DNA of 50,087 bases, from IMG/VR virus record IMGVR_UViG_2529292836_000016; one strand, written 5' to 3'. Source of the stretch: a virus. Taxonomy: Duplodnaviria > Heunggongvirae > Uroviricota > Caudoviricetes. The notes beneath the pieces are model-generated. The model saw nothing but the letters and a program-made list of their open reading frames with translations, searched no databases and was not told the DNA's origin. A program made the translations under genes and the position numbers. The first letter of the stretch is position 1, and the number at the start of each line of letters is the position of its first letter. This document shows positions 844-49,876 of this stretch, piece by piece.

Positions 844-845
844 GC

Positions 846-25226: not shown

Positions 25227-25268
25227 TGGGAAACATCAGAATAATCAAAGCAATAAGCAGTGTCGTGA

Positions 25269-25291
25269 AACCACCTTCGGGTGGTTTTTTT
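25269..25291 (+). terminator. Intrinsic terminator downstream of the tRNA-derived segment
   Basis: ccacc-ttcg-ggtgg hairpin (UUCG loop) followed by TTTTTTT. Confidence 0.75.
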
Positions 25292-25467
25292 GTGCATGCA
25301 ATTCACGCCCTGTGCATATCCTGTGCTCACGGGGTGCAATGAGCTGCAATCTACAGCCTGGCAATGCCGAATTGAACGTGTCGCCTCCAGCATAGAGAAC
25401 CAGGCCGCTTTGCCTGTTTTCCGGTACTCTTCCGGGAAGGGGGGCCTGCTGAGCAAACTGTAATGCT

Positions 25468-26208
25468 CTAGCCACCCTGAGTACAAAGTTGCTTAATTCG
25501 TGCAATCACCTCATCTCTGTACTTCTGGTGTCCGCGCATAGCCCTTGGATGGGCAATTCTGAAACAGATTGCATTACCTGTTTTGAACTCCCATAGCTTC
25601 CCCGGAATGACTGCAGAAGTCTCATAGCCGCCCAGCTCAGTAAGCACCTGTTTTATGATGTAGTCTGTTCTCCGGGCTCCAGATGCAAAGATGATGAAAT
25701 CAGGCTCAAGGTGTTTAATTTGTACCGACAGCAGCTTCAGCGAGGCTAATATAACTTCCTGCACTTCATTTTGAGGGCGATTGAGAGGGGTCAGTCCGTC
25801 GTAATCCCACGCCAGTAGATTGGCATACACGATTGCCTGGGGAGAAATATTAAGCTCCCGGGCCAGCCTGAAATGATATTGCGTGAAGCGGCTACGTGAT
25901 TTGAGGTTGGCGGTGCCATAATTTTGTACCGGAAGATGTTTCCTGTAACGATCTACAGCTTCTTCAACCACCTGCCCGATGGTGACGTCAGGTATAAGTC
26001 CCAACCCCCGTGATATCGTATTCTTACCATTCAGCGTATTCCAGCCTGCGGTTTCACGTCCAACCAGCATGATTTTTACCGGTGAATGCCAGTATTCTTC
26101 AAAGGGCACGGGTAAAAATACGCCTGAGTATTTATCCTCATTCAGGTTAAATGACTGGGCGTTAACTTCCTGCAATATCCGTTTGTACGCGTCTAATAGC
26201 TTTTCCAT
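25468..26208 (-). CDS. Hypothetical protein; possibly uracil-DNA-glycosylase superfamily
   Basis: 246 aa; weak N-terminal 'GRETAG' and C-terminal 'HPR' motifs at positions compatible with UDG motifs A/B; pipolins commonly carry a UDG. Low-confidence guess. Confidence 0.3.
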   Translation of the reverse strand: MEKLLDAYKRILQEVNAQSFNLNEDKYSGVFLPVPFEEYWHSPVKIMLVGRETAGWNTLNGKNTISRGLGLIPDVTIGQVVEEAVDRYRKHLPVQNYGTANLKSRSRFTQYHFRLARELNISPQAIVYANLLAWDYDGLTPLNRPQNEVQEVILASLKLLSVQIKHLEPDFIIFASGARRTDYIIKQVLTELGGYETSAVIPGKLWEFKTGNAICFRIAHPRAMRGHQKYRDEVIARIKQLCTQGG

Positions 26209-26288
26209 TCTTCAATCCTGCCCCGTAATAAAAACACCTTCAGATATATATTATTTTCATGATATCAATCAGATACATGAGGATAAAT

Positions 26289-27488
26289 ATGCAAAAATCC
26301 TTCCGATTCACCAATTCATCCATCAAAGCCCTTCCGGCAAACACAGATACCAGATCTACAGAGCTAGAGGTATCTGATACCGAAGTTATTGGACTCAAGT
26401 GCCTCTCAGGTCGAACAGGCAACAAGCGCTTCCTTCTGCGGTATACATTCCACGGTACCAAAAAAAGTATCAGTATTGGCAGATTTCCTGAAATTGATGT
26501 GGGAACAGCCCGGCAAATAGCCCGTCGTCACAAAGAAGCGATTGCGCTGGGAAATGACCCTAAAGCGGAGCGAGATAACTACCGCGCGATGCCAACACTT
26601 GGTGAGTTTTTCCATCAAACCTATGTTCCTTATATAAAGCGCCATAAAAAGTCATGGGATAAGGATGTTCAGCGTTTCACGCAATACATTGAACCTCGTC
26701 TGGGAAAGATACGTTACTGCGATCTCAGGGCCAGAGAGATACAACAGGTGCTGTTTGACATGCTGGAGGGGCGTATTCACGGGCAGCAATATGCGCCGTC
26801 TACCTGTAACAGAGCCCTTGCTATTCTGAAAACGATGGGGCGTTATGCGTTGCGACAGGATGTGCTGGAAAAGAATGAAGCCGATAAGATCCCTTTACTG
26901 AAAGAGAATAATCAGCGGACGCGCTTTTTTGATGCTGATGAGATCAGGCGCATTCTTGACGCTGCTACCCAATATCCCAACAAAGCTGCCGGGGGATTGA
27001 TAGCCATGTTGTTGTTAACCGGTACACGCAAATCAGAAATGCTTAATGTCAGGCATGAACATATCGACCGGGCCAATCGTACTCTGTTCATTCCTTATAC
27101 AAAAAATGGTCGCAGTCGGACGGTATATCTAAGCGATGCCGCATTATCGATTATTGATGCTATCCCACGAGTTGGCAGTAATCCGTATCTGTTCGCCATT
27201 AAGGATAATGGAAAACCGATATCGGAACCCCGATGGGCATATGAAAAAATACTGGCACAGTGCGGTATAGACAAGAATGAAGTCTGTTTTCACACCACAC
27301 GTCATTCTGTTGCCTCTTTACTGGTTTCGAGTGGTCAATTCAGCCTGTATGACGTTAAAGCCCAACTGGCGCATGCCAGTATTCAGAGTACAGAACGTTA
27401 CGCGAAATTAACACCGGAACGTATGCGTCAGACAGGGCAGGGAGTGACTGACCTGCTTCTGAATACTGCGGCTACGAAGCAGATGTGA
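26289..27488 (+). CDS. int: P4-type integrase (tyrosine recombinase with DUF4102-type arm-binding N-terminus)
   Basis: Trimmed to ATG with GAGGA RBS; N-terminal 'FTNSSIKALPAN...FLLRYTFHGTKKSISIGRFPEIDVGTARQIARRHKEAIALGNDP', C-terminal 'CFHTTRHSVASLL...ERYAKL'. Confidence 0.85.
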   Translation: MQKSFRFTNSSIKALPANTDTRSTELEVSDTEVIGLKCLSGRTGNKRFLLRYTFHGTKKSISIGRFPEIDVGTARQIARRHKEAIALGNDPKAERDNYRAMPTLGEFFHQTYVPYIKRHKKSWDKDVQRFTQYIEPRLGKIRYCDLRAREIQQVLFDMLEGRIHGQQYAPSTCNRALAILKTMGRYALRQDVLEKNEADKIPLLKENNQRTRFFDADEIRRILDAATQYPNKAAGGLIAMLLLTGTRKSEMLNVRHEHIDRANRTLFIPYTKNGRSRTVYLSDAALSIIDAIPRVGSNPYLFAIKDNGKPISEPRWAYEKILAQCGIDKNEVCFHTTRHSVASLLVSSGQFSLYDVKAQLAHASIQSTERYAKLTPERMRQTGQGVTDLLLNTAATKQM

Positions 27489-27518: not shown

Positions 27519-27761
27519 ATGAGGATGCATTTAAAATGCCCACAGTGTGGCAGTTGTAATACATTGATAAGTTCAGCAGGAAAACTGCCATCAATAACCG
27601 ATAATAAACGCTCTGGGTATATTAGCCTGGAGTTTTTACCTGAAATACTGAAAGAAATTATTAAGGCTATTAAAAAACTATTTGGATTCCTTGAACAGTG
27701 TGAAAGGAATAATGCGCCAGTGCTTATCTGTATGGACTGTGGGTATTATGAAAGAATTTAA
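27519..27761 (+). CDS. Small zinc-ribbon protein (two CxxC pairs)
   Basis: 80 aa; 'CPQCGS' and 'CMDCGY'; immediately downstream of integrase, followed by a strong terminator. Confidence 0.5.
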   Translation: MRMHLKCPQCGSCNTLISSAGKLPSITDNKRSGYISLEFLPEILKEIIKAIKKLFGFLEQCERNNAPVLICMDCGYYERI

Positions 27762-27804
27762 ATAGAAAACCAATAACTGTAAATAATAGTTATGCGGATG
27801 TATA

Positions 27805-27838
27805 AAAACCCCGATACGTTAATCGTATCGGGGTTTTT
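27805..27838. terminator. Bidirectional intrinsic terminator
   Basis: 10-bp perfect stem ccccgatacg/cgtatcgggg with A-run before and T-run after. Confidence 0.75.
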
Positions 27839-27856
27839 GTTTATGAGGATTATTCA

Positions 27857-28228
27857 ATGAAATTTGTCTCGAACTGGCAAGACCTGCCGTCGCTCCTTCT
27901 TCCGGAGTCAGTAATGAGTCTGTTGAAAACAGAGCTGGTACTCCCATTTGAAGATGAATACTCTGCAATGAGTTTCTGGGATGAAGTCGGGGTGACATTA
28001 ATATATGTCGAGCCCGATGATGTGCCTGAAGATATTAAAGCGCAGGTATTAAATGTGATTCATCAGTTAATTGCAAATCCAGAATTTGTAGTCCGTCTGA
28101 CAGATGACTATTACCTGATGCTTTCTGTTACGGAAGATAACGGGAACGGTATTTATCTGTTATTTCACCCCGATTGCCCTCTGAAGGGTATTGATTTATT
28201 AGTTTCTATGGCCGAATCACGCTATTAA
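27857..28228 (+). CDS. Hypothetical protein (gene 1 of a three-gene cassette)
   Basis: 123 aa, acidic, AT-rich codon usage; no recognisable motif. Confidence 0.55.
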   Translation: MKFVSNWQDLPSLLLPESVMSLLKTELVLPFEDEYSAMSFWDEVGVTLIYVEPDDVPEDIKAQVLNVIHQLIANPEFVVRLTDDYYLMLSVTEDNGNGIYLLFHPDCPLKGIDLLVSMAESRY

Positions 28229-28253
28229 ACACAAGCAAAACCAGGAACGCAAA

Positions 28254-28787
28254 ATGAGTAAATCAAAATTAGTTAAAAATAATGTTGAGTCAGTTTCGAA
28301 GGAGATTAAAAATGAGGCAGAGGTTATTCATGAAAATCTCAGTGCAGATGAACAAACATTATCTGATGTAAAAGACTATCAGTTGCTCATTGAAACAGGC
28401 CAGGCAGAAAAAATCAGTCCTAAGGCAAGTGGTATGCTGACATGGCAACTGGCGATATCAGAGGTGGACAATGAACTTTATCTTCGTCTGGTGGCAAATG
28501 GCTGTGGAGGGTTGTTCTCTAAGGACTGGATCTCACTTTCAAAGATTGCATCTGTTCTGGAAACACAACCTGCTACCGGCTTCTCATCCGGAGTATTCAG
28601 GCCGCTATTCAAAGGGACAAGCGCCAACAATGCAGGTTTTCTGGCTGCAGTTTTACGCTCCCCGGATATATGTCTGCTGGAGGCACATCCAGAGAAGTTA
28701 TTTACTCATGTATTATACCCGGACTGGAGGGAGCGGTTGAATAAACTTAATACGATCAGTAGCCAGGAAAAGATTACAGAGGATTAA
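28254..28787 (+). CDS. Hypothetical protein (gene 2 of a three-gene cassette)
   Basis: 177-aa ORF, short intergenic gaps to neighbours. Confidence 0.55.
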   Translation: MSKSKLVKNNVESVSKEIKNEAEVIHENLSADEQTLSDVKDYQLLIETGQAEKISPKASGMLTWQLAISEVDNELYLRLVANGCGGLFSKDWISLSKIASVLETQPATGFSSGVFRPLFKGTSANNAGFLAAVLRSPDICLLEAHPEKLFTHVLYPDWRERLNKLNTISSQEKITED

Positions 28788-28859: not shown

Positions 28860-29294
28860 ATGCAAACCCAATATGCCTTAAAACAGGCAGGATTAACTCT
28901 GCCTGTTACTAAAGAATTTCAGCAGCATATTACTACTCTTCTGGCAAATCAGGTTTTACAAAAAATAACTGAGGCAGTGGTTATTAATTTCCGTGATCCG
29001 GACTACAGTGCAGAATCCGGGGGCTTTCATCCCGTTGAAATACGGTTTATCCGTAAGAATAATGAATGGTATTTTGATTATGTCACAGATTTTAGTTATA
29101 TGGGGCGTGTCTACCCTGAGCTGGAAAAAGAAATTGATTTTTGCTGGTCGGGGAATTATGTCTTCCATTATCTGATTGGGGATATTTCACTGGCAGCAGA
29201 GAGGAATGAACTCTGGTCCCTGTGGGAGCGTAATTTTATGGAATATCTCTCTATGGGGATTTACCGGGTAACGGTAACTGTGGAAAGTTGTTGA
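28860..29294 (+). CDS. Hypothetical protein (gene 3 of a three-gene cassette)
   Basis: 144-aa ORF; followed about 110 nt downstream by an intrinsic terminator. Confidence 0.55.
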   Translation: MQTQYALKQAGLTLPVTKEFQQHITTLLANQVLQKITEAVVINFRDPDYSAESGGFHPVEIRFIRKNNEWYFDYVTDFSYMGRVYPELEKEIDFCWSGNYVFHYLIGDISLAAERNELWSLWERNFMEYLSMGIYRVTVTVESC

Positions 29295-29439: not shown

Positions 29440-29467
29440 CCCCCTATGGTGCATTCTCCAGTAGCAG

Positions 29468-29510
29468 GGTGATAACGGTTAATCCATTACCCCAACGACA
29501 GTATTACACC
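29468..29510. repeat. Copy 1 of an about 43-bp imperfect direct repeat (core CATTACCCCAACGNCAGTNTTACACC)
   Basis: 'ggtgataacggttaatccattaccccaacgacagtattacacc'; second copy at 40255-40297. Confidence 0.6.
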
Positions 29511-29595: not shown

Positions 29596-29823
29596 ATGTA
29601 TAAAACTCGCGGTGAAAGGATCGCAGAAAGGCTGTGCTGGATATTACTACAACTGTATACCGGTAATACGGTATCGGTTAATGATATATGTCAGCGTTTC
29701 GCGGTCAGTCGCCGAACCGGACAGCGTGATTTGTTGAGAGTTGAAATTGTAACGGAAACTATTTCACCTGGAAGGGTAAGGCTGGCAAATTTGATAAGGG
29801 AACGAGTTAGACGAAATTTTTAA
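29596..29823 (+). CDS. HTH-only ORF; possibly a truncated WYL-type regulator remnant
   Basis: 75 aa 'RIAERLCWILLQLYTGNTVSVNDICQRFAVSRRTGQRDL' resembles the N-terminal HTH of the regulator at 30785-31687 but lacks a WYL domain. Confidence 0.35.
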   Translation: MYKTRGERIAERLCWILLQLYTGNTVSVNDICQRFAVSRRTGQRDLLRVEIVTETISPGRVRLANLIRERVRRNF

Positions 29824-29904: not shown

Positions 29905-30723
29905 CTACTCAAATGATATTAATTTGGGTGCGACAGTGTTTTTATGACATGTTAAATTCGTAAGATCAATAATATCATGAAACAATTTTATGTCGTCGTC
30001 AGTGAGCTCTACGTCTGGATCAGCTAAATCGGCACAGGTAACATTTAACCAGTGTGTTAATGAATCAATCCTGTTTGAAGTAATATATTCAGTGTGACCA
30101 ATATCCCACTTCCAGTTGATCACCCGAGCAGGTCTGAATCTCACCTCCCGAACCCCAATTGGCGTTACTGACTCTACGAGAGGGTATATCGTGTTAAGTA
30201 CTTTATCATGTTCACTGTAGATATTTAAATGCCCCATTTTTGAACCGTAAACCATTTTCATTATGTTCTCTGTATAACTTGTTATTGGGGTGGCTCCGGC
30301 CATAGAGATTGTTAAGAGAATATTATCATTTTTAATATAGGGTAATGTATTGTTTATTAATCGAGTCCCTAAAGAATGACCCATTATGATCACATTACGC
30401 TTTTCTTTAACGTATATTTCGTTTATTACGTGTGCTAATTTTTCTCTGTTATTAACTGCTGCTTTCGTTGCATTATACCAGGCCTGACGCGCTTTAAATG
30501 GAATGGAGATTGATGACAATAAAGGAGATGTTCTCAGGGGGAAGAGAGTATATAACCCCCACTTGTTCGCTATGTCAGAACTTAATATGGATAGTAGATT
30601 TGCCGATTCCCATTTATAGTATCTGACATCAAGGCCACACCCTGCTTTAATTCGGTTAAACCATGATATATCATTTTCGGTCAGAAACCCTGATACAACA
30701 AGAAGAACGGGGCATTTTTTCAT
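29905..30723 (-). CDS. Alpha/beta-hydrolase-fold protein (GHSLG nucleophile elbow)
   Basis: 272 aa; 'VIIMGHSLGTRL' GxSxG motif; AT-rich; immediately downstream of and co-oriented with the WYL regulator. Confidence 0.55.
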   Translation of the reverse strand: MKKCPVLLVVSGFLTENDISWFNRIKAGCGLDVRYYKWESANLLSILSSDIANKWGLYTLFPLRTSPLLSSISIPFKARQAWYNATKAAVNNREKLAHVINEIYVKEKRNVIIMGHSLGTRLINNTLPYIKNDNILLTISMAGATPITSYTENIMKMVYGSKMGHLNIYSEHDKVLNTIYPLVESVTPIGVREVRFRPARVINWKWDIGHTEYITSNRIDSLTHWLNVTCADLADPDVELTDDDIKLFHDIIDLTNLTCHKNTVAPKLISFE

Positions 30724-30784: not shown

Positions 30785-31687
30785 TTACGGGGCGTTACTT
30801 GGCTGGGTGTAACGTTTCAGTGCGGATTGTATATCTTCAGCAAATTGTTGACGGATTGAGGCCGGTTGTATTACTTCGACATCCGGTATCCAGTATTTCA
30901 TTAAAGGCATTATCTGATCTGTGTGTGTTACACGTGATATCACCAGTAAATCGCCAGACCGGGAAGTATGAATTATTTCCTGTCCTGGCAATAGATGACG
31001 GTGGGTAAACCACGGAGCAACATGTGCGGAAACTGAAATAAGAACTTCGATAAGGTCTTCGCTATACCAGATACCATCTGTCTTTTCTATTTTTTCATTA
31101 ATTTCGGGGATTATCCTGAAAGAGATATTACTCATGCAAACGTCTTTGACAGATGAGATAACAAAGCTTTTTAATGTACTGTCATGGACGGCAGCGAGAT
31201 ACCACAATCCGTTGTCATTAACCAGTCTGTATGGCTCAACAGCCCGAAACTCTTTATCTTTGTAATTAAAATTTACTTTCTTCTGTGACAGGATGGCATC
31301 GGATAATACATTCAGAATTGACATGAATGATCCGCAGTTTTCGTATGGACGTTGTTTTATCAGAAACGGGTTGTTTTTCGTGTTACCTAACAAAATACTC
31401 AGTAGTCTGTCATCCCAGCGAGGGAACAGCCCTTCAATACCCAGGATGCGCGTGAAATGACGTAAATCAGCATTGCTGCGTTGACCGAGAACACCGTCAG
31501 ACAGGCGATAGCGACCATTTTGTCGAATCAGATTAAGATAGGACAGGCGCTGAGTAAGATCACGACGGATAGTTTTTTCGCAAACGTTAAATTCCTCAGA
31601 TAACTCCCGGACGGCTAGTGACTCACCATTGTTCAGGCGAGTTAATATCAATCCGAGTCGATATCCAAGTTTATCGTGCTTACCCAT
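30785..31687 (-). CDS. WYL-domain transcriptional regulator (HTH + WYL + C-terminal extension)
   Basis: 300 aa; N-terminal HTH '[21 protein letters not shown]'; central '[30 protein letters not shown]' WYL signature. Confidence 0.7.
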
Positions 31688-40254: not shown

Positions 40255-40297
40255 GGTGATATATGGATCATCATTACCCCAACGGCAGTTTTACACC
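40255..40297. repeat. Copy 2 of the about 43-bp imperfect direct repeat
   Basis: 'ggtgatatatggatcatcattaccccaacggcagttttacacc'; pairs with 29468-29510. Confidence 0.6.
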
Positions 40298-40515: not shown

Positions 40516-42039
40516 ATGAACGACAAAATCAGTCAGGACACGATCAACAAAGCCCTGTGGGCCGCGTGTGATACGTTCCGTGGCACCATCAGTGCTGATA
40601 CCTATAAAGACTTTATCCTTACCATGCTGTTCCTCAAGTACATTTCAGATGTCTGGCAGGATCACTATGACGAATACAAAGAACAGTATGGCGATGCGCC
40701 GGAACTGATTGAAGCGATGATGGCCAACGAGCGTTTTGTACTGCCAAAAAGTGCCAGCTTTTATGCGCTGTACGAACGCCGCCATGAGCCGGGTAACGGT
40801 GAGCGTATCGATCAGGCGCTGCATGCGATTGAAGAAGCCAACGGCACCAAACTGAAAGATGCCGGGAAAAGCGTGTTCCAGGATATTTCGTTTAACACTG
40901 ACCGCTTGGGTGAAGAAAAACAGAAGAACACCATCCTGCGCCAGCTGCTGGAAGACTTTGCCGGTGAAGATCTTAACCTGAAGCCAAGCCGTGTAGGTAC
41001 GCTGGACGTTATCGGTAATGCCTACGAATATCTGATTAAAAACTTTGCCGCCAGCGGTGGGCAGAAAGCCGGGGAATTCTATACGCCGCCGGAAGTTTCG
41101 GACCTGATTGCAGAACTGCTCGATCCGCAACCGGGTGATACCATCTGTGACCCTGCCTGTGGTTCTGGTTCGTTGTTAATGAAGTGCGGGCGTAAGATTG
41201 TCTCCGGGCATGAAAGCCGTAACTATGCTTTGTTCGGTCAGGAAGCGATTGGCTCCACGTGGTCGCTGGCGAAAATGAACATGTTTCTTCACGGCGAAGA
41301 CAACCACAAAATCGAGTGGGGCGATACCATTCGTAACCCGAAGCTACTCGATAAAAATGGCGACCTGATGCTGTTTGATATCGTTACCGCTAACCCGCCG
41401 TTCAGTCTGGATAAGTGGGGCCATGATGAGGCCGAGAACGATAAGTTTGGTCGTTTCCGTCGCGGTGTACCGCCGAAGACTAAAGGAGATTACGCCTTTA
41501 TCTCGCATATGATAGAAACCCTGAAACCGGGAACGGGTCGTATGGGCGTAGTTGTGCCACACGGTGTGCTTTTCCGTGGCTCCAGCGAAGGTAAAATTCG
41601 CCAGAAACTGATCGACGAAAATTTGCTGGATGCGGTAATTGGTCTGCCGGAAAAACTGTTCTACGGTACGGGGATTCCGGCTGCGATTCTGATTTTCAAA
41701 AAGCAGAAAGTTGATGATAAGGTGCTGTTTATCGATGCCAGCCGTGAATTCAAGGCAGGTAAAAACCAGAACCAGCTTAGCGAAGAAAACATTAAGAAAA
41801 TCGTCAAGACCTACCGTGATGGCGATAACGTCGAGAAATACGCCTATCTTGCCAGCCTGAAAGAGATTCAGGACAACGATTACAACCTCAATATTCCGCG
41901 CTATGTCGATACCTTTGAAGAAGAGGAAGAGATCGATTTGCTGGTCGTTCACGCTGAGCGGGAGGAATTGAAAGCGGAACTGGCGAAGCTGGAAACGGAG
42001 ATGGAAGGGTATTTGAAGGAGTTGGGTTATGGCGTTTAA
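40516..42039 (+). CDS. hsdM: Type I restriction-modification methyltransferase subunit
   Basis: 507 aa; 'DPACGSGSLL' AdoMet motif I and 'NPPF' N6-adenine motif IV; overlaps hsdS start. Confidence 0.9.
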   Translation: MNDKISQDTINKALWAACDTFRGTISADTYKDFILTMLFLKYISDVWQDHYDEYKEQYGDAPELIEAMMANERFVLPKSASFYALYERRHEPGNGERIDQALHAIEEANGTKLKDAGKSVFQDISFNTDRLGEEKQKNTILRQLLEDFAGEDLNLKPSRVGTLDVIGNAYEYLIKNFAASGGQKAGEFYTPPEVSDLIAELLDPQPGDTICDPACGSGSLLMKCGRKIVSGHESRNYALFGQEAIGSTWSLAKMNMFLHGEDNHKIEWGDTIRNPKLLDKNGDLMLFDIVTANPPFSLDKWGHDEAENDKFGRFRRGVPPKTKGDYAFISHMIETLKPGTGRMGVVVPHGVLFRGSSEGKIRQKLIDENLLDAVIGLPEKLFYGTGIPAAILIFKKQKVDDKVLFIDASREFKAGKNQNQLSEENIKKIVKTYRDGDNVEKYAYLASLKEIQDNDYNLNIPRYVDTFEEEEEIDLLVVHAEREELKAELAKLETEMEGYLKELGYGV

Positions 42040-43252
42040 TTACGAGATAAATCAACTAGAATTGATGCAGGCAAGAATTAAAAGCGTGCCTCACGGGTGG
42101 CAATTCACTTATGTAGGTAAGGCGTTTTGCATCCGTAATAACTTACGGAAGCCGATTAGCGAAGAAGAACGTAGTATGAGTCCGGGCAACTATCCTTATT
42201 ACGGACCGACTAAGATCCAAGGTTATATTGGCACTTTTGAACAAGATGGAAGTTATGCTTTGATTGGAGAAGATGGTGATCACTTCCTGAAGTTTGAAAA
42301 ACATTCAATGACGCAGTTGGTGGATGGGAAATGTACAGTTAATAACCATGCTCATATTATTGAAGGAACGAAAGAGGCCTCAAGAGAATGGTTTTACTAC
42401 TATTTTATGCATAGGGACATTTTCAGTTTCTTGAGTCGGCAAGGGGCGGGTAGGTACAAGCTAAACAAAGCATCCCTTGAAAAAATGCCTTTGTTGCTCC
42501 CTCCTATCGTTGAGCAAAAGAAAATCGCCCAAATCCTGTCAACCTGGGATAAGGCGATTTCGGTGACGGAAAAGCTTCTCGCCAACAGCCAGCAGCAGAA
42601 AAAAGCCCTGATGCAGCAATTGCTTACCGGGAAGAAACGGTTGCTGGATGAGAATGGGGTGAGGTTTAGTGGGGAGTGGTGTACGTGCACTTTGTCTGAA
42701 GTAGCACATATTATTATGGGATCATCACCTAAATCCGAAGCCTACAACGATAATGGCTTAGGTTTGCCATTAATACAGGGTAATGCCGATATAAAGTGCC
42801 GAGTTTCATGTCCCAGAGTTTATACGTCTGACATTACGAAAGAATGTACTCCTGGAGATATTCTTCTAAGTGTCAGGGCACCTGTAGGTACTGTTGCACT
42901 TTCTCAACATAAAGCATGTATAGGGCGTGGTATATCGGCTATAAAATCCAAGAGAAAAATGAGTCAATCATTTCTTTATCAATGGTTTCTTTGGTTTGAA
43001 CCAAAATGGTGTTACCTATCACAAGGTAGCACATTTGAATCAATTAATAGTGATGATATAAAGACATTAAAATTATCAGTGCCCAATTTTGAAGAACAAC
43101 AAAAAATTGCCGCCGTTCTGTCCGCAGCCGATGCTGAAATATCCACGCTGGAGAAAAAACTCGCCTGCCTGAGAGATGAGAAAAAAGCCCTGATGCAACA
43201 GCTACTGACTGGCAAACGTCGTGTTAAGGTCGATGAGGCGGTTGCCGAATGA
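42029..43252 (+). CDS. hsdS: Type I restriction-modification specificity subunit (two TRDs)
   Basis: 407 aa; conserved repeats 'KKALMQQLLTGKKRL' (central) and 'KKALMQQLLTGKRRV' (C-terminal) flanking two variable domains. Confidence 0.85.
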   Translation: MAFNYEINQLELMQARIKSVPHGWQFTYVGKAFCIRNNLRKPISEEERSMSPGNYPYYGPTKIQGYIGTFEQDGSYALIGEDGDHFLKFEKHSMTQLVDGKCTVNNHAHIIEGTKEASREWFYYYFMHRDIFSFLSRQGAGRYKLNKASLEKMPLLLPPIVEQKKIAQILSTWDKAISVTEKLLANSQQQKKALMQQLLTGKKRLLDENGVRFSGEWCTCTLSEVAHIIMGSSPKSEAYNDNGLGLPLIQGNADIKCRVSCPRVYTSDITKECTPGDILLSVRAPVGTVALSQHKACIGRGISAIKSKRKMSQSFLYQWFLWFEPKWCYLSQGSTFESINSDDIKTLKLSVPNFEEQQKIAAVLSAADAEISTLEKKLACLRDEKKALMQQLLTGKRRVKVDEAVAE

Positions 43253-43932
43253 AACTGACGAAAAGCGGGCCGCTGATTGACCGGGAAATCGACTGGCTGG
43301 AAGAGGTGTTGCTGAAATACGGCAATGATGACTCTGTGCTCTGTTTCTCTGAGCTGGATGGCTTTCTGACAGCGATTGTCTCTGGCCCGAATATGATCCC
43401 CCCTAATACCTGGCTTAGTGCTATCTGGGGGCGAGGTGATTACCACCCTCGCTGGACTACTGAAAAAGAGATGACGCGTTTTGTGGGGCTGTGTTTTCAG
43501 CATATGAACGATATCGCTGGCTGCCTGTATGAGGCCCCTGAACAGTTTGAACCGATTTTCAATGGACGTGAGGTGAAGGGGAAGACATATACCATCGTCG
43601 AAGAGTGGTGTTTCGGGTATATGAAAGGTCGGTCTCTGGATGACTGGTCAGCCTTGCCAGAGGCCTTACGTCCCTCGCTGGAGGCGATAGCCCTTCATGG
43701 TATTGAAAAGAACTTCCCAGTGGTTGAGAAAATGTCACCTGTTCAATTTGAACAGAGTATTACTCTCATTCAGCCTGCGGCACTGGCGCTTTACCAGCAC
43801 TGGTTGTCGGTGAGAATGTCAGAGGCATCATCCCGGCCTGTTCCCGTGAAGGGGGCAGAAAAACTGCCCGGTCGTAATGACCCGTGTCAGTGTGGCAGTG
43901 GTAAAAAATTTAAAAAGTGCTGCCTGCACTGA
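43249..43932 (+). CDS. YecA-like protein (UPF0149-type domain with C-terminal SEC-C metal-binding motif)
   Basis: 227 aa; C-terminal 'GRNDPCQCGSGKKFKKCCLH' is a SecA-type SEC-C motif; ATGA overlap with hsdS stop. Domain call from memory, not searched. Confidence 0.6.
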   Translation: MKLTKSGPLIDREIDWLEEVLLKYGNDDSVLCFSELDGFLTAIVSGPNMIPPNTWLSAIWGRGDYHPRWTTEKEMTRFVGLCFQHMNDIAGCLYEAPEQFEPIFNGREVKGKTYTIVEEWCFGYMKGRSLDDWSALPEALRPSLEAIALHGIEKNFPVVEKMSPVQFEQSITLIQPAALALYQHWLSVRMSEASSRPVPVKGAEKLPGRNDPCQCGSGKKFKKCCLH

Positions 43933-43954
43933 CAAAGCGGAAGGGGGCTTGCTC

Positions 43955-45739
43955 ATGGCAGTGAACAATCTGGATCGTTCCCGGTGGTACATGGGAAATG
44001 TTCTCTGGTTCGGAGGCTACAACAGCAAAACGGATCGGGAGAATAACTTTGGCTTTCTCTTATCAGAGAATGGTAATGAGCTGTTTTTTCATAAGAATGA
44101 GATAAGCCGGAACTATACACCCGCTGACAATGCACCTGTGCTGTTCAGGGAAGGTACAGGTAAAAATGGTAAGCCTACGGCTTTTAATGTTCACATTCTT
44201 GATAAAACAGATGAGGAGACGGCTGAGCTCCTTATTGAATATCTCCGGGCTATTATTGAGGAGGGCGTTGATTTCGCTCGTTGGCGTTATCGTGACTGCG
44301 TTATTAATTTTCTCACTCAGTCCTTTGGCGAAAGGGCTATAATTCGGTTAGTTACCAGTGATATAGCTGCTACAAAAGTCTTGCCGCTATTTTTAAAATC
44401 ACGTAACTACGATAACCAGTTTGCACTTTTCGCCTCTGATAAGAATTTTGATGATTTGACCGCACAACAAATATCTCCTGCGGTCATGCCTTCGTCATTT
44501 ATCGATAATAACATTGATCAGTTCGCTGTTTGGGTGAAAAGGTGTTCTGCGGCTACGGATTGCCAGGGGGCTTCAACATCGGACATCATCAATGAATTAC
44601 TCAGCCATATATCTATAAGTGCTATTCTCTACCTGGCATTTTACGATTGTATAAGCAGCGAGCGGATTCTTGAACATCGGCATGATGATATAGAGAATTT
44701 TGTTCGACGTAGTTTCACGAAAAATAAAATGGATATACAACCATTTGTCCGTGATGCCTATCAGCAGAAATTCTCATCGAGAGAGCAATTTTATAAACAT
44801 TCCGTGATTAGTCCTTTTGTCAATAATTATTTGATTAAACAGAAGATGTTTAGGAAAGATTTCAGTTTTGTTAATGATATTGAGTCGAATACTGAAATTT
44901 CTTCTGACCCTGAATACTTTATTCTGAGTAAATTGTTACCGCTGATTGGGCGTAACGATGAACAGTCCGTTCTGAGTATTATTCTGCATGAGATATGGCA
45001 GGGGGTGTTGTCGGGTAAAATCCCGGTAAGCCATCCTTCTGTTTTCAAATTGTTCCCACAGTGTAGCTCATTGAAAATTCGTTCCCGGAATTTAAAATTA
45101 TCCTGTGAGGCATTTCACTGGAATGCAAAACAACCTGACGGAACGATAGAGAAAAAATTCCTTTGTCGTTCGAAAATCTGCCATGATCCGCAGGTACTGC
45201 CCGACCTCAGTCGGGATTACATCGACTTCACTATTTATGACTGGCTTTCCCACTATGGCATGACCTATCTGATTGCAGGCGAACCTTCTAAGCGGGATTT
45301 CCCAATTAAACTGGCTGGGTATTTCAATCGTATCAGAGAATTACATTCCCGCTTGCATTGCCGAAGTTGTGGGGTGCTGATGGTTCCAGATATGAAATAT
45401 GCTCGTGTGGAAGTCAGCGTCTGGGATACAAAGTCGAAAGGATTTGTGAAAAAACCTTTCCAGGCCGCGTATCGCCTGACCGTCTTTAAATGTGCCAGTC
45501 ATTCGTGCGAACAGTTTGGTATCGGGCATTACATTAATCACTGTATTGGTTACAAATGCAGCGAAATAATTGACGCCAGGGATTTGCATGAAAAATGTTC
45601 AGAAGGACGATTTATTTGTGCATCCTGTGGTTCCTGCTGTACGACGCATCAGGAGAAATTTGGTAATGTAAACAAGGGCGAAACAGAACAGGTCAAGTAC
45701 AATCGCCTTTATCGGGACTCGCCGTTCTTTTCATCATAA
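43955..45739 (+). CDS. Large protein with cold-shock-like N-terminal OB fold and Cys/His-rich C-terminal putative zinc-binding module
   Basis: Track ORF 43877..45739 trimmed to ATG at 43955 (GGAAGGGGG RBS). N-terminus 'GNVLWFGGYNSKTDRENNFGFLLSENGNELFFHKNEI...KPTAFNVHIL' follows the CSD pattern; C-terminus 'CRSCG...CASHSC...GHYINHC...CASCGSCC'. Confidence 0.7.
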   Translation: MAVNNLDRSRWYMGNVLWFGGYNSKTDRENNFGFLLSENGNELFFHKNEISRNYTPADNAPVLFREGTGKNGKPTAFNVHILDKTDEETAELLIEYLRAIIEEGVDFARWRYRDCVINFLTQSFGERAIIRLVTSDIAATKVLPLFLKSRNYDNQFALFASDKNFDDLTAQQISPAVMPSSFIDNNIDQFAVWVKRCSAATDCQGASTSDIINELLSHISISAILYLAFYDCISSERILEHRHDDIENFVRRSFTKNKMDIQPFVRDAYQQKFSSREQFYKHSVISPFVNNYLIKQKMFRKDFSFVNDIESNTEISSDPEYFILSKLLPLIGRNDEQSVLSIILHEIWQGVLSGKIPVSHPSVFKLFPQCSSLKIRSRNLKLSCEAFHWNAKQPDGTIEKKFLCRSKICHDPQVLPDLSRDYIDFTIYDWLSHYGMTYLIAGEPSKRDFPIKLAGYFNRIRELHSRLHCRSCGVLMVPDMKYARVEVSVWDTKSKGFVKKPFQAAYRLTVFKCASHSCEQFGIGHYINHCIGYKCSEIIDARDLHEKCSEGRFICASCGSCCTTHQEKFGNVNKGETEQVKYNRLYRDSPFFSS

Positions 45740-45808
45740 GTCTTCGTTCATTTTGAGTATGTCCGTAAGGACATACAGTTTCACCTCTTAGCCAAGAAGG
45801 ATTACCGG

Positions 45809-48800
45809 GTGGATAAGCACTACCAACCTAAATTCCAGGAAGAATACAGCGCCAAAATTCCGGCACTGACGTTACTGACCAGCCTCGGCTGGACGTTTTT
45901 ATCTCCGAAACAGATTATGGATTACCGGGGCTATAAACAGGATGAGGTGGTGCTGCGTCCGGTTCTGCGTGAAGAGCTGTCGAAGCGTTCCTTTATGGCG
46001 GGTGGCAAAACCTGCCAGTTATCGGAAAAAGCACTGGATAACCTGATATCACAGGTCTGTTCTCCGGCGCTGAATGAAGGGCTGCTCAAAGCCAATGAAC
46101 GGATGTATAACCATCTGCTCTACGGTATCACCGTCACGGAGTTTGTCGATGGCAAGAAGGTCAACCCCCCCATTGCGCTGATCGACTGGGAACATCCGGA
46201 AAATAACCAGTTCCATTTTACCGAAGAATTTACGGTATTGCGGTCAGGCGGTGTCGAAACCCGCAGGCCGGATATTGTATGTTTTGTGAATGGTATCCCG
46301 CTGGCCGTCATTGAAGCGAAAAGCCCGGCGGGTCACGGCAAGAAAGGGCCAACCATTGACGAAGGGATATCCCAGAGTATCCGCAATCAGCTCAACGACG
46401 AAATCCCGCAGCTGTTTGCTTACAGCCAGATATTACTGTCGATTAACGGGCATGACGGGCGCTACGGTACCTGTCATACACCAATGAAATTCTGGGCGGC
46501 ATGGCGCGAAGAAGATATTACTTACGCGCAGATGTATGCGCTGCGCAACCATAAGTTATCGACTGAACAAATTCATGCGTTGTTTGATCATCGTCCTTCA
46601 GTCGATCTCAACTGGTATCAACAGTTAATCGATGGGGGGGAACTGGCAGTCAGCGGGCAGGATAAGCTGCTCATCAGTCTGCTTTCACCGGAACGTCTGC
46701 TGGAGATGACCCGCTTCTTCACCCTGTTTGATAAAAAAACCGGAAAAATTGTTGCCCGCTATCAGCAGGTGTTCGGGATAAAAAGACTGCTGGAACGCAT
46801 CAGTACCCGCAGACCAGACGGGGGCAGGGAAGGGGGGGTGATCTGGCATACCACGGGGTCAGGTAAATCTTACACCATGGTGTTCCTCAGCAAGGCGCTG
46901 ATTCTTCATGACAGCCTGAAGCGGTGTCGTATCGTGGTGGTGACGGACCGTATCGATCTTGAAGAACAGCTCAGCAATACCTTTGCATCCGGCGGCGAGT
47001 TGGCCGGGAAAAAAGACAAAGCCAATGCAATGGCGACATCCGGGCAGATGCTGGCGAAACAGATTGGCTCCGGTAAAGAACGCATCATTTTCACCCTAAT
47101 CCAGAAATTTAATTCAGCGACAAAACTTCCTGAATGCGTCAATACCAGCCCCGATATCATCGTTCTGATTGATGAAGGACACCGTAGCCAGGGTGGTGAG
47201 AACCATGTGCGAATGAAACTGGCACTGCCGAACGCCGCCTTTGTAGCATTTACTGGTACGCCATTGCTAAAAGAAGATAAGACCACCAATAAATTCGGAC
47301 CGATTGTCCACGCTTATACCATGCAGCGAGCGGTAGAAGATAAAGCCGTTACACCTTTGCTGTATGAAGAACGTATTCCCGACCTTGAGGTTAACGATCG
47401 GGCAATAGATGCCTGGTTTGATCGTATTACCGATGGGTTAAGCGAAGCGCAAAAAGCCGACCTTAAGCGTAAATATGCCCGTAAAGGTGAGGTTTATAGT
47501 GCAGATGATCGCATCCGTCTGATCGCACTCGATATCGCCACGCACTTCTCGAAGAATATTGATGAGGGACTGAAAGGCCAGCTTGCCTGCGACAGCAAGA
47601 TTTCCGCCATCAAATATAAAAAGTATCTTGATGAAGCCGGGTTGTTTGAGTCAGCTGTAGTTATCAGCCCGCCGGATACCCGGGAAGGGAATACTGAGGT
47701 GGATGAAAGCAAACTGCCGGAAGTGACGAAATGGTGGAAAGATAACGTCGGCACGCAGGATGAGTCTGTGTATACCCGCAATATCATCAGTCGTTTCGAT
47801 ACCGATGAGAAGCTCAAATTGCTGATAGTCGTTGATAAACTGCTCACCGGGTTTGATGAGCCGAAGAATACCGTGCTGTATATCGACAAGCCGCTTAAGT
47901 CCCACAACCTTATCCAGGCGATTGCGCGGGTGAACCGACTGCATCCACTAAAAAAGTTCGGTCTGCTGATTGATTATCGCGGTATTCTGGCTGAGCTGGA
48001 CACGACTATCGGCAAATATCAGGACCTCGCCTCCCGAACTCAGGGCGGATACGACATCAAAGATATTGACGGGCTGTACAGCGCCATGAGCTCTGAATAC
48101 AAGCGCCTGCCGCATCTGTATAACCAGCTGTGGGCCATATTTGCTGGTGTCAAAAACAAAAATGATACTGAGCAGTTACGTGCGGTACTGGTGCCTAAAA
48201 TGGAAGAACGTGACGGAGAGATGGTCGATATCCATCAGAAAACCCGTGATGATTTCTTCGAGGCGTTAACGGCCTTTGCCGGATGCCTGAAAGTGGCACT
48301 GCAGTCCGCCACCTTCTTCACCGACAAGAGCTTTACGGAACAAGACCGAAATCTCTATAAAGAAACCGTAAAACAGATGTCCAGCCTGCGCCAGTGGGCG
48401 ATGCAGGTAAGTGGAGAGCAGGTCAATTATGACGACTACGCTGAGCAGGTGAAAAAACTGCTGGATAAGCATGTCACCGGCGTTGAGGTTCGTGAACCGG
48501 ATGGCGTGTATGAAGTCGGTAAAATGGGCAAGAGCGAAAAGCCCGAAGAGTGGGACAACAATAAAACCCGCAATGAAACCGACATCATTAAAACCCGTGT
48601 GACAAAGATGATTGAGCAGGAGCTGCGTGATGACCCGTATGCTCAGGAAGCCTTTTCAAAACTCCTGCGTATGGCTATTGAAGAGGCTGAAAAACTGTTC
48701 GACCATCCGTTGAAACAGTATCTCTTGTTCCGTGAATTTGAAGAACAGGTTGAAGCCCGTAAGCTCAGCGATATCCCGGATGCACTGGCGGTAAACAAGC

Positions 48801-49093
48801 ATGCTCAGGCGTATTACGGTGTATTTAAAAAAGAGCTACCTGAGGTTTTTGCGGTAAACGACGTTCAGGTGCAGGATAAGTGGACGAAGCTGGCCTTTGA
48901 AGTGGACAGCATTATCGTTAGAGCGGTGGAAGAAAACTCCCTGAACCCTCAGGATATTGAGAAAGCCGTTAAGACTAATCTGTTACCGCTGCTGTTTACG
49001 GCCTGCCGGGAGATGGGTGCCGGAATGAATCAGGTAAACCGTATCGTGGAAACTATCATCCAGATCCTGCGCGTTGGTTTGATGAAATCATGA
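45809..49093 (+). CDS. hsdR: Type I restriction endonuclease/helicase subunit
   Basis: 1094 aa; Walker A 'TTGSGKS', 'DEGHRSQ' DEAD-box-like motif; probable GTG start. Confidence 0.9.
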   Translation: MDKHYQPKFQEEYSAKIPALTLLTSLGWTFLSPKQIMDYRGYKQDEVVLRPVLREELSKRSFMAGGKTCQLSEKALDNLISQVCSPALNEGLLKANERMYNHLLYGITVTEFVDGKKVNPPIALIDWEHPENNQFHFTEEFTVLRSGGVETRRPDIVCFVNGIPLAVIEAKSPAGHGKKGPTIDEGISQSIRNQLNDEIPQLFAYSQILLSINGHDGRYGTCHTPMKFWAAWREEDITYAQMYALRNHKLSTEQIHALFDHRPSVDLNWYQQLIDGGELAVSGQDKLLISLLSPERLLEMTRFFTLFDKKTGKIVARYQQVFGIKRLLERISTRRPDGGREGGVIWHTTGSGKSYTMVFLSKALILHDSLKRCRIVVVTDRIDLEEQLSNTFASGGELAGKKDKANAMATSGQMLAKQIGSGKERIIFTLIQKFNSATKLPECVNTSPDIIVLIDEGHRSQGGENHVRMKLALPNAAFVAFTGTPLLKEDKTTNKFGPIVHAYTMQRAVEDKAVTPLLYEERIPDLEVNDRAIDAWFDRITDGLSEAQKADLKRKYARKGEVYSADDRIRLIALDIATHFSKNIDEGLKGQLACDSKISAIKYKKYLDEAGLFESAVVISPPDTREGNTEVDESKLPEVTKWWKDNVGTQDESVYTRNIISRFDTDEKLKLLIVVDKLLTGFDEPKNTVLYIDKPLKSHNLIQAIARVNRLHPLKKFGLLIDYRGILAELDTTIGKYQDLASRTQGGYDIKDIDGLYSAMSSEYKRLPHLYNQLWAIFAGVKNKNDTEQLRAVLVPKMEERDGEMVDIHQKTRDDFFEALTAFAGCLKVALQSATFFTDKSFTEQDRNLYKETVKQMSSLRQWAMQVSGEQVNYDDYAEQVKKLLDKHVTGVEVREPDGVYEVGKMGKSEKPEEWDNNKTRNETDIIKTRVTKMIEQELRDDPYAQEAFSKLLRMAIEEAEKLFDHPLKQYLLFREFEEQVEARKLSDIPDALAVNKHAQAYYGVFKKELPEVFAVNDVQVQDKWTKLAFEVDSIIVRAVEENSLNPQDIEKAVKTNLLPLLFTACREMGAGMNQVNRIVETIIQILRVGLMKS

Positions 49094-49845
49094 GTGAAAA
49101 AGAGTCGCCAGCAATGAAAGCGTTACGCATTGTTTATGGTGATGAGGTCATCACCGTACAGTGTGTTCCGCGTCAGGTCGTAAAGGGCAGGGTGCTCATC
49201 AAGGTTTATCCGGACTGCCGGGTTGTGGCCTCTGTACCGCCTGAAACACCGGAGCACGAGGTATTGTCTGCGCTGAAAAAACGAGGGCGCTGGATATACC
49301 AGCAACTGCGTGATTTCAGGGAGCAACAGACACACATTGTTCCGCGTCAGTATGTCAGCGGAGAAAGCCATTATTATCTCGGTAAGCAATATCAGTTGAA
49401 AGTGACAGAAGACGCTACTGTGCCGCAACGAGTGAAAATGTTGCGTGGGCGTCTGGAAGTGACTGTCAGACACAAATCGGCAGAAAAGATTAAAGCCTTG
49501 CTGGCTGAATGGTATCGGGAACGTGCCAGAGATGTTTTTCAGCGCAGGCTTGATTTACTGATTCCGCAGACCCTTTGGGTCAGTGAGCGTCCTCCGATAC
49601 GTCTGCGGGCGATGCAAACGCAATGGGGCAACTGTTCAGCAAAAGGCTGTCTGACCCTGAATCCATGGCTGGTTAAGGCATCCTCAGAATGTATCGATTA
49701 TGTTTTGCTACATGAGTTATGCCATGTGGCTGAGCACAACCACAGCGAGGAGTTTTACCGTCTGATGGGGCAGGTTATGCCGGGCTGGGAAAAGGTTAAG
49801 AAGCGACTGGATGGTATGGCTGGGATGTTGTTGGCAGATATGTAG
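49090..49845 (+). CDS. DUF45/YgjP-like (WLM-type) zinc metallopeptidase
   Basis: 251 aa; 'LLHELCHVAEHNHSEEF' HExxH zinc motif; ATGA overlap with hsdR stop. Confidence 0.65.
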   Translation: MSEKESPAMKALRIVYGDEVITVQCVPRQVVKGRVLIKVYPDCRVVASVPPETPEHEVLSALKKRGRWIYQQLRDFREQQTHIVPRQYVSGESHYYLGKQYQLKVTEDATVPQRVKMLRGRLEVTVRHKSAEKIKALLAEWYRERARDVFQRRLDLLIPQTLWVSERPPIRLRAMQTQWGNCSAKGCLTLNPWLVKASSECIDYVLLHELCHVAEHNHSEEFYRLMGQVMPGWEKVKKRLDGMAGMLLADM

Positions 49846-49876
49846 TTTCTAACTTATTCCAATGGGCTCATTTGTC

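Follow-up and report, generated by a model that had tools for sequence, protein, structure and literature searches.

A probable pipolin of the known E. coli kind in the 3' half of leuZ, in tandem with a P88-like prophage

The DNA analysed here, a window of 50,087 nucleotides, holds P2-type prophage sequence in its left 25 kb, a partial tRNA-Leu segment, and beyond it a family-B DNA polymerase gene among recombinase, regulator and restriction-modification genes. The question raised by this locus is what kind of element follows the tRNA segment, where it begins and ends, and how it relates to the prophage with which it shares a site. We conclude, with a probability of about 95%, that a canonical enterobacterial pipolin of ~41.2 kb is integrated in the 3' half of leuZ and that the region analysed is its left ~25 kb; we are equally confident that leuZ closes the glyW-cysT-leuZ operon and that the pipolin lies between pgsA and yecA. 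The window appears to be an entire draft contig. About 60% of the element is inside it, the remainder being read not from the source strain but from the NCCP 13717 genome, which differs from the whole window by 12 SNPs. No evidence contradicting the identification was found. The whole finding has already been published, and the element is of a known E. coli kind with nothing new to it. The pipolin label is missing from RefSeq: the island is not flagged there, and its polymerase goes under the names "DNA polymerase type-B family protein", "DNA polymerase" and "hypothetical protein". The main value of the analysis is correct annotation.

Polymerase signatures and element borders

The initial annotation had described a family-B polymerase with ExoI, motif B and motif C, and all three are found in the intact 866-aa protein: ExoI is DTE at residues 59-61 (D59/E61), motif B is KEIGNSLYG at 504-512, with the steric-gate tyrosine, and motif C (PolC) is SVTTDG at 571-576, its first aspartate replaced by threonine (SxTTDG). 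At residues 613-626 the protein carries KHEVSQLIAMKTRG, a KH-X8-KTRG motif. The replacement of YxDTDS by SxTTDG and of KxY by KH-X8-KTRG are the signatures that define primer-independent family-B polymerases, or piPolBs (PMC5695915), and the two variant motifs bear out the earlier assignment to this type and not to protein-primed PolBs. Moreover, D59, E61, D368, K613, H614, K623 and R625, the residues mutated in the characterised enzyme of E. coli 3-373-03_S1_C2 (PMC5695915), have the same numbers in the protein described here. From its near identity to the characterised enzyme, the 866-aa protein is predicted to synthesise DNA without a primer. A PDB sequence search with it returned no meaningful match.

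The left border of the pipolin is a direct repeat that serves at the same time as the right-hand junction of the prophage. Its 131 nt comprise the last 55 nt of leuZ and the operon terminator, such that 25172-25226 correspond to the tRNA-Leu (anticodon UAA) from the base that opens the anticodon loop through CCA and the terminator hairpin lies at ~25268-25294; the partial tRNA-Leu 3' segment noticed earlier is thus real. In E2528-C1, a strain without the prophage, the 3' half of the intact leuZ and the sequence that follows it are identical to this repeat. A repeat search within the window did not find a second copy because that copy is beyond the contig end: in NCCP 13717 it occupies window-equivalent positions 66218-66349, directly before yecA and ~16 kb past the end of the window, and is 94.7% identical to 25172-25301 over 132 aligned columns. 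The initial annotation had called for a search outside the window and had set a lack of flanking att repeats against the pipolin reading; the copy ~41 kb downstream answers both points. The 131/133-nt repeat brackets 41.2 kb, and the element has no other long repeat.

The integration site, leuZ downstream of pgsA-glyW-cysT, agrees with the constant Leu-tRNA site reported for E. coli pipolins. Relative to the native copy, the repeat at 25172-25302 has T at 25200 and A at 25214, a compensatory change of the T-stem pair C50-G64 to U50-A64. ARAGORN called no complete tRNA in the window; it is outside it that an intact tRNA-Leu(UAA) was called, with a pipolin-type 3' half in E2528-C1 and with a native or phage-type 3' half in NCCP 13717. 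Rfam identified no RNA families in the pipolin part of the window. Of the span first proposed for the island, 25230-49876, the island itself stands, whereas both limits need correction: since the att repeat occupies 25172-25302, the element starts ~58 nt earlier, and 49876 is not a boundary, the pipolin running on for another ~16 kb past the IS1 fragment in NCCP 13717.

Core genes, cargo and orphan genes

The order of the core genes (UDG-like, integrase, DUF2787, WYL, piPolB, excisionase-like, integrase; Table 1) is the published enterobacterial synteny. In the gammaproteobacterial core an SXT-type integrase lies near att with DUF2787 and WYL genes, DUF2787 being its conserved neighbour, and a second integrase and an excisionase adjoin piPolB (PMC11551731). 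Here the second integrase is 27% identical to the att-proximal one over its full length. The two tyrosine recombinases, AlpA-like regulator, Type I restriction-modification (R-M) system and AT-rich cargo listed in the initial annotation are all present, and together with the piPolB motifs and the flanking direct repeats, the gene order upholds its reading of the region as a pipolin.

Table 1. Features of the window and the evidence for each. The names IntSXT and IntP2 come from the pipolin literature and from gene position.
Feature	Position	Strand	Evidence
Integrase of adjoining P88-like (P2-family) prophage, outside the pipolin	24064-25065	+	Pfam Int_N 5.2e-32, Phage_integrase 2.5e-22
att direct repeat	25172-25302	+	leuZ match
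Putative UDG-superfamily protein, divergent, 246 aa	25468-26208	-	AlphaFold fold match
att-proximal tyrosine integrase, IntSXT-type (RefSeq start 26289, 399 aa)	26259-27488	+	Pfam Arm-DNA-bind_3 2.8e-14, Phage_integrase 8.5e-24
Three small orphan ORFs (80-aa zinc-ribbon protein, then 123 aa and 177 aa)	27519-28787	+	PHROGs
DUF2787 protein, pipolin core gene	28860-29294	+	Pfam DUF2787 3.8e-40
DUF726 / alpha-beta hydrolase-like protein	29905-30723	-	Pfam DUF726 1.7e-6, LCAT 3.2e-5
HTH-WYL-WCX transcriptional regulator, pipolin core gene	30785-31687	-	Pfam WYL 1.6e-10, WCX 2.9e-9, HTH_DeoR 3e-8; PADLOC WYL 1e-21
piPolB, 866 aa	32442-35042	-	Signature motifs
Orphan, 212 aa, between excisionase-like gene and piPolB	35089-35727	-	No family match
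Excisionase-like HTH protein, 66 aa (the AlpA-like regulator)	35717-35917	-	Pfam HTH_17 5.9e-9; PHROG 66 'excisionase and transcriptional regulator' 4.3e-7
Second tyrosine recombinase, IntP2-type, 378 aa	36060-37196	-	Pfam Phage_integrase 2e-21, Phage_int_M 1.7e-6
Two AT-rich orphan genes, 376 aa and 410/411 aa	37340-40212	-	GC
Cargo block, Type I R-M with embedded genes	40221-49900	+	PADLOC, Pfam
hsdM	40516-42039	+	PADLOC MTase_I 6.7e-133
hsdS	42029-43252	+	PADLOC Specificity_I 6.9e-148
YecA-like/SEC-C gene	43249-43932	+	Pfam
Cold-shock-domain (CSD) protein	43955-45739	+	Pfam
hsdR	45809-49093	+	PADLOC REase_I E = 0
YgjP-like M48 peptidase	49090-49845	+	Pfam
IS1-like transposase fragment at contig end	49932-50087	+	RefSeq annotation of NCCP 13717

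The 246-aa protein beside att gave no sequence match in Pfam, NCBIfam or the PDB, and a PDB search with a profile of 42 sequences returned nothing meaningful. Its AlphaFold model (pLDDT 89.3) matches solely structures of the uracil-DNA glycosylase (UDG) superfamily, including the family 4 UDG 4zby (E = 7.9e-6), UdgX, SMUG1 and TDG, and a motif-A-like GRETxGWN and a motif-B-like HPR are invariant across 42 homologues. The modelled fold supports membership of the superfamily. In family 4 UDGs the two motifs, variant here, read GE(A/G)PG and HPS, and four cysteines hold a 4Fe-4S cluster. Such a cluster is impossible in the 246-aa protein because it has two cysteines in total, and although its predicted fold matches family 4 UDG, UdgX and SMUG1, identity is 13-15% and the TM scores are 0.4-0.58. 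Assignment to family 4 is doubtful, and on its model the protein appears to be a divergent branch of the superfamily and a putative glycosylase.

The cargo contains a Type I R-M system, as judged from hsdM, hsdS and hsdR together (PADLOC, Pfam), with an embedded PDC-S12 gene (PADLOC 3.1e-97). The block at 40221-49900 is 96.2% identical at the DNA level to a stretch found on conjugative plasmids, mainly those of Klebsiella, and plasmid records matching it at 95-99% number 355 of 410. The counterpart in Klebsiella pneumoniae (e.g. NC_016966.1) has hsdM, hsdS, the YecA-like gene, the CSD gene, hsdR and the YgjP-like peptidase in common with the block described here; it is borne on a plasmid, whereas the present block is in a chromosomal pipolin. 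The CSD gene is absent from some otherwise identical pipolins. Sharing of Type I R-M, PDC-S12 and hhe with plasmids has already been reported in the pipolin literature. In NCCP 13717, two DUF262 genes lie in the distal ~16 kb together with IS66/IS3 elements and an hhe gene that IS100 has split; the IS insertions indicate some decay of the distal cargo.

Several genes of the element are orphans. The three small ORFs after the att-proximal integrase match PHROG families without assigned function end to end, the zinc-ribbon match being weak, and the DUF726 protein had no PADLOC match. For the 212-aa orphan, no Pfam, NCBIfam or PHROG family was matched, its homologues are enterobacterial only and all at least 70% identical, and its AlphaFold model (pLDDT 37.8) is unusable. 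The AT-rich pair (GC 0.356 over 37197-40220 vs 0.526 in the prophage part) encodes proteins lacking significant matches in Pfam, NCBIfam, PHROGs and PADLOC, and is found in the same pipolin context in six of six places among the 24 contigs listed. At relaxed thresholds, all that Pfam and NCBIfam yielded for the orphan genes was noise, a weak AbiJ_NTD4 match (E = 0.017) included. The AT-rich pair, the DUF726 hydrolase beside the WYL regulator and the 212-aa gene, which is co-oriented with piPolB, are constant members of this pipolin. It is a tentative and on balance improbable suggestion that they include uncharacterised anti-phage systems or an accessory factor for piPolB; if so, a pipolin variant common in E. 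coli would supply new functions in defence or replication.

The tandem prophage and the mobility of the pipolin

Against phages P88 and 520873 (P2-family, Peduovirinae), the left 25 kb of the window shows 95-97% identity, which covers 82-86% of that length and takes in the genes for ParM and the replication endonuclease. RefSeq annotates P2-type capsid, terminase, portal, tail, ogr and replication endonuclease genes in the prophage. In NCCP 13717 an intact leuZ borders the prophage on its far left, beyond the window; this, with the identity to P88 and 520873, confirms that the two elements are in tandem at the same tRNA-Leu. H10407 and other strains are known to have three att repeats, with a myovirus adjoining the pipolin (PMC7385651; PMC11551731). 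The repeat variants fit a history in which the pipolin arrived first and the phage second; they fit equally well with loss of the phage from prophage-free relatives or with insertion of the pipolin into the right att copy of the prophage. A shared integrase behind the common site was considered and rejected, the prophage and pipolin integrases being 25-26% identical in the catalytic region.

A model for how the pipolin may move can be outlined. A tyrosine integrase, the att-proximal SXT-type enzyme being the likely candidate, would recombine the pipolin attP with leuZ, and the second integrase and the excisionase-like HTH protein beside piPolB probably assist or set directionality. Because the repeat begins where the anticodon loop does, strand exchange is most likely at that base. 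The incoming pipolin would bring its own tRNA 3' half, with the compensatory U50-A64 T-stem pair, and terminator, so that leuZ would stay functional, and the original 3' half would be pushed to the distal end of the pipolin. Once excised, the circle would be copied by piPolB without an external primer. The att-distal half would serve as a platform for anti-phage cargo (Type I R-M, PDC-S12, DUF262 genes, hhe), with defence genes probably exchanged with plasmids. The P88-like P2-family phage, by means of an unrelated integrase, would target the same 125-nt leuZ segment, giving three att copies.

Other readings of the locus have to be weighed against this one. The polymerase might have come from a protein-primed PolB element, such as a tectivirus-like or linear-plasmid-like replicon or a casposon-like self-synthesising transposon, a class to which polintons also belong, and it is true that the sole Pfam similarity of the 866-aa protein is a sub-threshold match (E = 0.01) to DNA_pol_B_2, a family of the organellar and viral protein-primed type. 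However, PolC is not YxDTDS and KTRG stands in place of KxY, no inverted terminal repeats were found in the complete pipolin (distal part from NCCP 13717), no capsid, terminal-protein or Cas1 genes were found by Pfam, PADLOC, NCBIfam or PHROGs, and the element is edged by tRNA-derived direct repeats and carries tyrosine integrases, so that this origin is effectively refuted and we allow it only the slimmest of chances. It is also very improbable that the pipolin is a satellite of the adjacent P2-like phage, or is mobilised by it, as P4 is by P2. The two elements do carry the same ~125-nt leuZ segment in tandem and the identical junction recurs in 30 genomes. Nevertheless, this segment is all that the P88-like prophage has in common with the pipolin: BLASTN between the prophage part and the complete pipolin gave no other DNA similarity at E of at most 1, and no common cos-like sequence was found because the two share no DNA besides att. 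The P2 cos sequence had no match in the window even at 3 mismatches, the 41-kb pipolin exceeds the ~36-37.6 kb of related phage genomes, the phage integrase is ~25% identical to those of the pipolin, and the junction occurs in just 30 of the 296 piPolB-bearing genomes. The satellite reading was rejected on the absence of shared DNA other than att, the absence of the P2 cos and the size.

Somewhat unlikely, and to be taken more seriously, is the view that the island is a fixed and immobile remnant, a vertically inherited chromosomal defence island whose excision was disabled by the prophage at the same att. Flament-Simon et al. (2020) found pipolins in tandem with a prophage to be congruent with their hosts in phylogeny and hypothesised inactivation, copies 99.9-100% identical are present in several related ETEC-type strains, and IS elements have inserted in the distal cargo of NCCP 13717. 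Against this, piPolB, both integrases and the excisionase-like gene are full-length with intact catalytic motifs, two att copies of 94.7% identity still bracket the pipolin, and the cargo block was recently exchanged with plasmids. Identification as a pipolin explains the hybrid leuZ of these strains, the three att copies where a P2-like prophage uses the same site, and the presence of a Klebsiella-plasmid Type I R-M block in an E. coli chromosome.

Occurrence in E. coli and comparison with known pipolins

In a set of 5426 complete E. coli genomes, 80% or more of the pipolin segment is present in 189, and 296 have the piPolB gene, which is chromosomal in every case and always at least 95% identical in DNA to the gene for the 866-aa protein. 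The prophage-pipolin junction, first reported in H10407, is present in 30 of the 5426, including H10407, FWSEC0002, 99-3165 and 2014EL-1346-6, four strains for which three att repeats and an adjoining myovirus are described in the literature (PMC7385651).

The pipolins of E. coli, for example those of 3-373-03_S1_C2 and ETEC H10407, are described by Redrejo-Rodriguez 2017 (PMC5695915), Flament-Simon 2020 and Mateo-Caceres & Redrejo-Rodriguez 2024. They share with the present element the piPolB motifs and residue numbers, the tRNA-Leu site with att-like terminal direct repeats, two tyrosine recombinases of which one adjoins an excisionase, and the UDG-like, DUF2787 and WYL core genes. Also common to both are cargo genes of the Type I R-M, PDC-S12 and hhe kinds and the optional tandem myovirus prophage with a third att copy. 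The hhe gene is broken by IS100 in NCCP 13717 and ~41 kb is in the upper size range, yet there is no substantive difference between this pipolin and those already known from E. coli.

The polymerase and the genes around it

Counted from its RefSeq start, the polymerase has the 866 amino acids given in the initial annotation (887 codons from the first ATG). Primer-independent family-B DNA polymerases (piPolBs) are defined by threonine in place of the first aspartate of the PolC motif, SxTTDG, and by KTRG instead of KxY, inside an extended KH-X8-KTRG motif (Redrejo-Rodriguez, 2017; PMC5695915). The window protein has SVTTDG at residues 571-576 and KHEVSQLIAMKTRG at 613-626, together with DTE at 59-61, aspartate at 368 and KEIGNSLYG at 504-512, and all residues mutated in the characterised E. 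coli enzyme (D59/E61, D368, K613, H614, K623 and R625; PMC5695915) are found at identical numbering. By these motifs the polymerase is a piPolB, as had been proposed. The sole Pfam match is sub-threshold, to the protein-primed DNA_pol_B_2 family (E = 0.01), and a PDB sequence search returned no relative, consistent with the reported 16-20% identity between piPolBs and protein-primed PolBs. A piPolB gene was found in 296 of 5426 complete E. coli genomes, chromosomal and with at least 95% DNA identity in every case. The exact protein, WP_001734866.1, forms a singleton cluster in a 90%-identity protein collection despite genes of at least 99% DNA identity in 195 complete genomes, and its singleton status is probably a clustering artefact rather than biology.

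From the att repeat inward, the pipolin encodes a 246-aa protein, an integrase with an Arm-DNA-bind_3 domain, small orphan ORFs, DUF2787, a DUF726 hydrolase, an HTH-WYL-WCX regulator, a 108-aa orphan, piPolB, a 212-aa orphan, an HTH_17 excisionase-like protein and a second integrase. The features noted initially are all present: two tyrosine recombinases, the AlpA-like regulator (an HTH_17 excisionase-class protein), the Type I R-M system, which is complete, and AT-rich cargo, which includes two low-GC orphan genes. This orphan pair has no family match and always occurs in the same pipolin context. The 212-aa ORF shares 11 nt with the excisionase-like gene and stops 46 nt ahead of the piPolB start. 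Its homologues are solely enterobacterial, with at least 70% identity, and it has no predictable fold, the AlphaFold model being unusable; it is a candidate accessory factor for the polymerase or for recombination.

Features of the window and of the complete element (positions above 50,087 are window-equivalent, read in NCCP 13717)
Feature	Position	Strand	Content
Prophage non-P2 cargo	12663-14976 and 22611-24058
C4 antisense RNA and isrK	18607-18804	minus	RF01695, 87 bits; RF01394, 66 bits (Rfam)
SPFH protein gene	18918-19748		prophage non-P2 cargo
Terminal direct repeat	25172-25301 and 66218-66349		direct; from self-comparison of the 41.2-kb element
UDG-like protein gene	25468-26208		246 aa
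Internal repeat	29467-29510 and 40254-40297		45 aligned positions, 84%; both copies intergenic; only internal repeat in the pipolin
HTH ORF	29596-29823		75 aa, unannotated
piPolB gene	32442-35042	minus
212-aa ORF	35089-35727	minus	between excisionase-like gene and piPolB
Cargo block	40221-49900		hsdM, hsdS, YecA-like/SEC-C protein, cold-shock-domain protein, hsdR, YgjP-like peptidase
Genes between hsdS and hsdR	43249-45739		YecA-like/SEC-C (PDC-S12) and 594-aa cold-shock-domain proteins

Integration at leuZ

The window differs at 12 of 50,087 nt from positions 2133822-2183908 of the finished NCCP 13717 chromosome (NZ_CP115984.1). Its left end lies within a prophage tail-fibre gene and its right end in an IS1 fragment, and the flanks were taken from NCCP 13717 and the prophage-free E2528-C1 (NZ_CP035870.1). 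ARAGORN found no complete tRNA in the window. The partial tRNA-Leu 3' segment of the initial annotation is real: 25172-25226 is identical to the last 55 nt of leuZ, the tRNA-Leu(UAA) gene, a stretch that opens with the first anticodon-loop base and runs through to CCA. When the leuZ region was compared with the NCCP 13717 island by BLASTN, a second leuZ 3' half with approximately 75 nt of downstream sequence was recovered, so that the flanking direct repeats sought beyond the window do exist; the distal copy (133 nt, 94.7% identical; record 2200038-2200170) is just upstream of yecA. Self-comparison of the complete 41.2-kb element yielded two repeats only, the terminal direct repeat and a 45-nt internal one, and no inverted terminal repeats. 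With the distal att copy placed before yecA, the window covers only the leftmost 60% of the element. The extent of 25230-49876 claimed initially is correct in locating a pipolin here, but 49876 only marks the last recognisable genes before the IS1 fragment and not the end of the element.

The order in NCCP 13717 is pgsA, glyW, cysT, intact leuZ (att copy 1), P88-like prophage, att copy 2 (window 25172-25302), pipolin, att copy 3 and yecA, which bears out the proposed tandem with a P2-like prophage at the same tRNA. Copies 1 and 3 show no difference over 125 nt; both are of the native type, which the phage also carries. Compared with this type, copy 2, of pipolin type, has T at 25200 and A at 25214 within the tRNA, two other substitutions and a deletion of 2 nt downstream of the tRNA, and another substitution close to the repeat's 3' end. 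The two tRNA changes are compensatory, turning T-stem pair C50-G64 into U50-A64, and in E2528-C1 the intact leuZ has the pipolin-type 3' half and is still called tRNA-Leu(UAA) by ARAGORN. This is the classical pattern of a tyrosine-integrase element swapping a tRNA 3' half for its own copy. Since no variant position falls in the initial 28 nt of the repeat and all lie 3' of them, crossover would occur between the anticodon loop and the variable arm. Because the pipolin-borne 3' half differs from the native one, prophage-free pipolin strains would express a hybrid tRNA-Leu(UAA). In the strain with the tandem prophage the phage-borne copy restores the native leuZ sequence.

Cargo and the UDG-like protein

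A 'type-4 UDG' was a frequent pipolin gene in a 2020 survey (Flament-Simon, 2020; PMC7385651). The 246-aa protein has no sequence match in Pfam, NCBIfam or the PDB. An AlphaFold model built with 42 homologues, drawn from many Gammaproteobacteria, is confident (pLDDT 89.3), and its structural neighbours are exclusively UDG-superfamily enzymes, led by a family 4 UDG (E = 7.9e-6) and followed by UdgX, SMUG1 and TDG. On this model the protein is a divergent UDG-like protein. Family 4 UDGs bear a four-cysteine Fe-S cluster; that cluster is impossible in the window protein, which has two cysteines in total. Members of this divergent UDG-like family are found widely, at 50-96% identity (Pectobacterium, Serratia, Proteus, Pseudoalteromonas, Marinobacter, Stutzerimonas and marine metagenomes), although neither Pfam nor NCBIfam has a model for it.

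Conjugative plasmids, mostly of Klebsiella pneumoniae, carry a segment with 96.2% identity to the cargo block, and 355 of the 410 matching plasmid records fall at 95-99%. The YecA-like/SEC-C protein of the block is the PADLOC candidate PDC-S12 (3.1e-97). The 594-aa cold-shock-domain protein has no defence-family match, and its gene is missing from some otherwise identical pipolins, which makes it a separable insert. Past the window end, the NCCP 13717 copy continues with two DUF262 genes, an IS100-interrupted hhe and IS66/IS3 elements. The internal repeat, with a core (CATTACCCCAACGnCAGTnTTACACC) matching at 24 of 26 positions, has one copy upstream of the 75-aa HTH ORF, which is similar to a WYL regulator N-terminus, and its other copy borders the plasmid-shared Type I R-M block on the left; the repeat may act as an operator or may be left over from recombination.

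The neighbouring prophage and known pipolins

Over 82-86% of its length, window 1-25000 matches phages 520873 and P88 at 95-97% identity, and it has P2-type structural genes and a 940-aa replication endonuclease. Its non-P2 cargo comprises a DUF3800 gene, ParM with a partition protein (in a low-GC stretch, 0.46), the SPFH protein, and a membrane protein with a DUF2511 gene between a repressor-like HTH gene and int. The adjoining C4 and isrK (Hfq-binding) RNAs lie in the early region beside the RefSeq 'derepression protein' gene and constitute a P1/P7-style antisense immunity module within a P2-family phage.

That the pipolin is a satellite of this phage finds no support: prophage and pipolin have no DNA in common besides the att repeat, no shared cos-like DNA was found between them, the phage integrase is only 25-26% identical to either pipolin integrase, the pipolin is too large, and the prophage-att-pipolin junction (24500-25900) occurs in just 30 of the 296 genomes with piPolB. 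The same phage is found at leuZ without a pipolin in other genomes, the match stopping precisely where the att repeat ends. An element with a protein-primed PolB is excluded by the polymerase motifs and the lack of inverted repeats and of the relevant genes. An immobile remnant is rather unlikely, given that the genes for recombination and replication are intact and the element has both its att copies.

The initial interpretation as a pipolin is thus correct, borne out by the piPolB motifs, the flanking att direct repeats and the published gene order. In gammaproteobacterial pipolins IntSXT is close to the integration site amid DUF2787, a WYL protein and orphans, and IntP2 is followed by an excisionase close to piPolB (Mateo-Caceres and Redrejo-Rodriguez, 2024; PMC11551731), which is the order seen in the window. 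Enterobacterial pipolins are bimodular, with an att-proximal core and distal cargo, and Type I R-M, PDC-S12 and hhe are among the defence genes recently exchanged with plasmids (PMC11551731). Some genomes have an adjoining prophage with its own IntP2-type integrase and the target tRNA in common (PMC11551731); H10407, FWSEC0002, 99-3165 and 2014EL-1346-6, all among the 30 complete genomes with the junction, have been described with three att repeats and a myovirus adjoining the pipolin (PMC7385651). Element type and arrangement were therefore already known, and the element is typical of its well-described family, tandem prophage and plasmid-shared cargo included.
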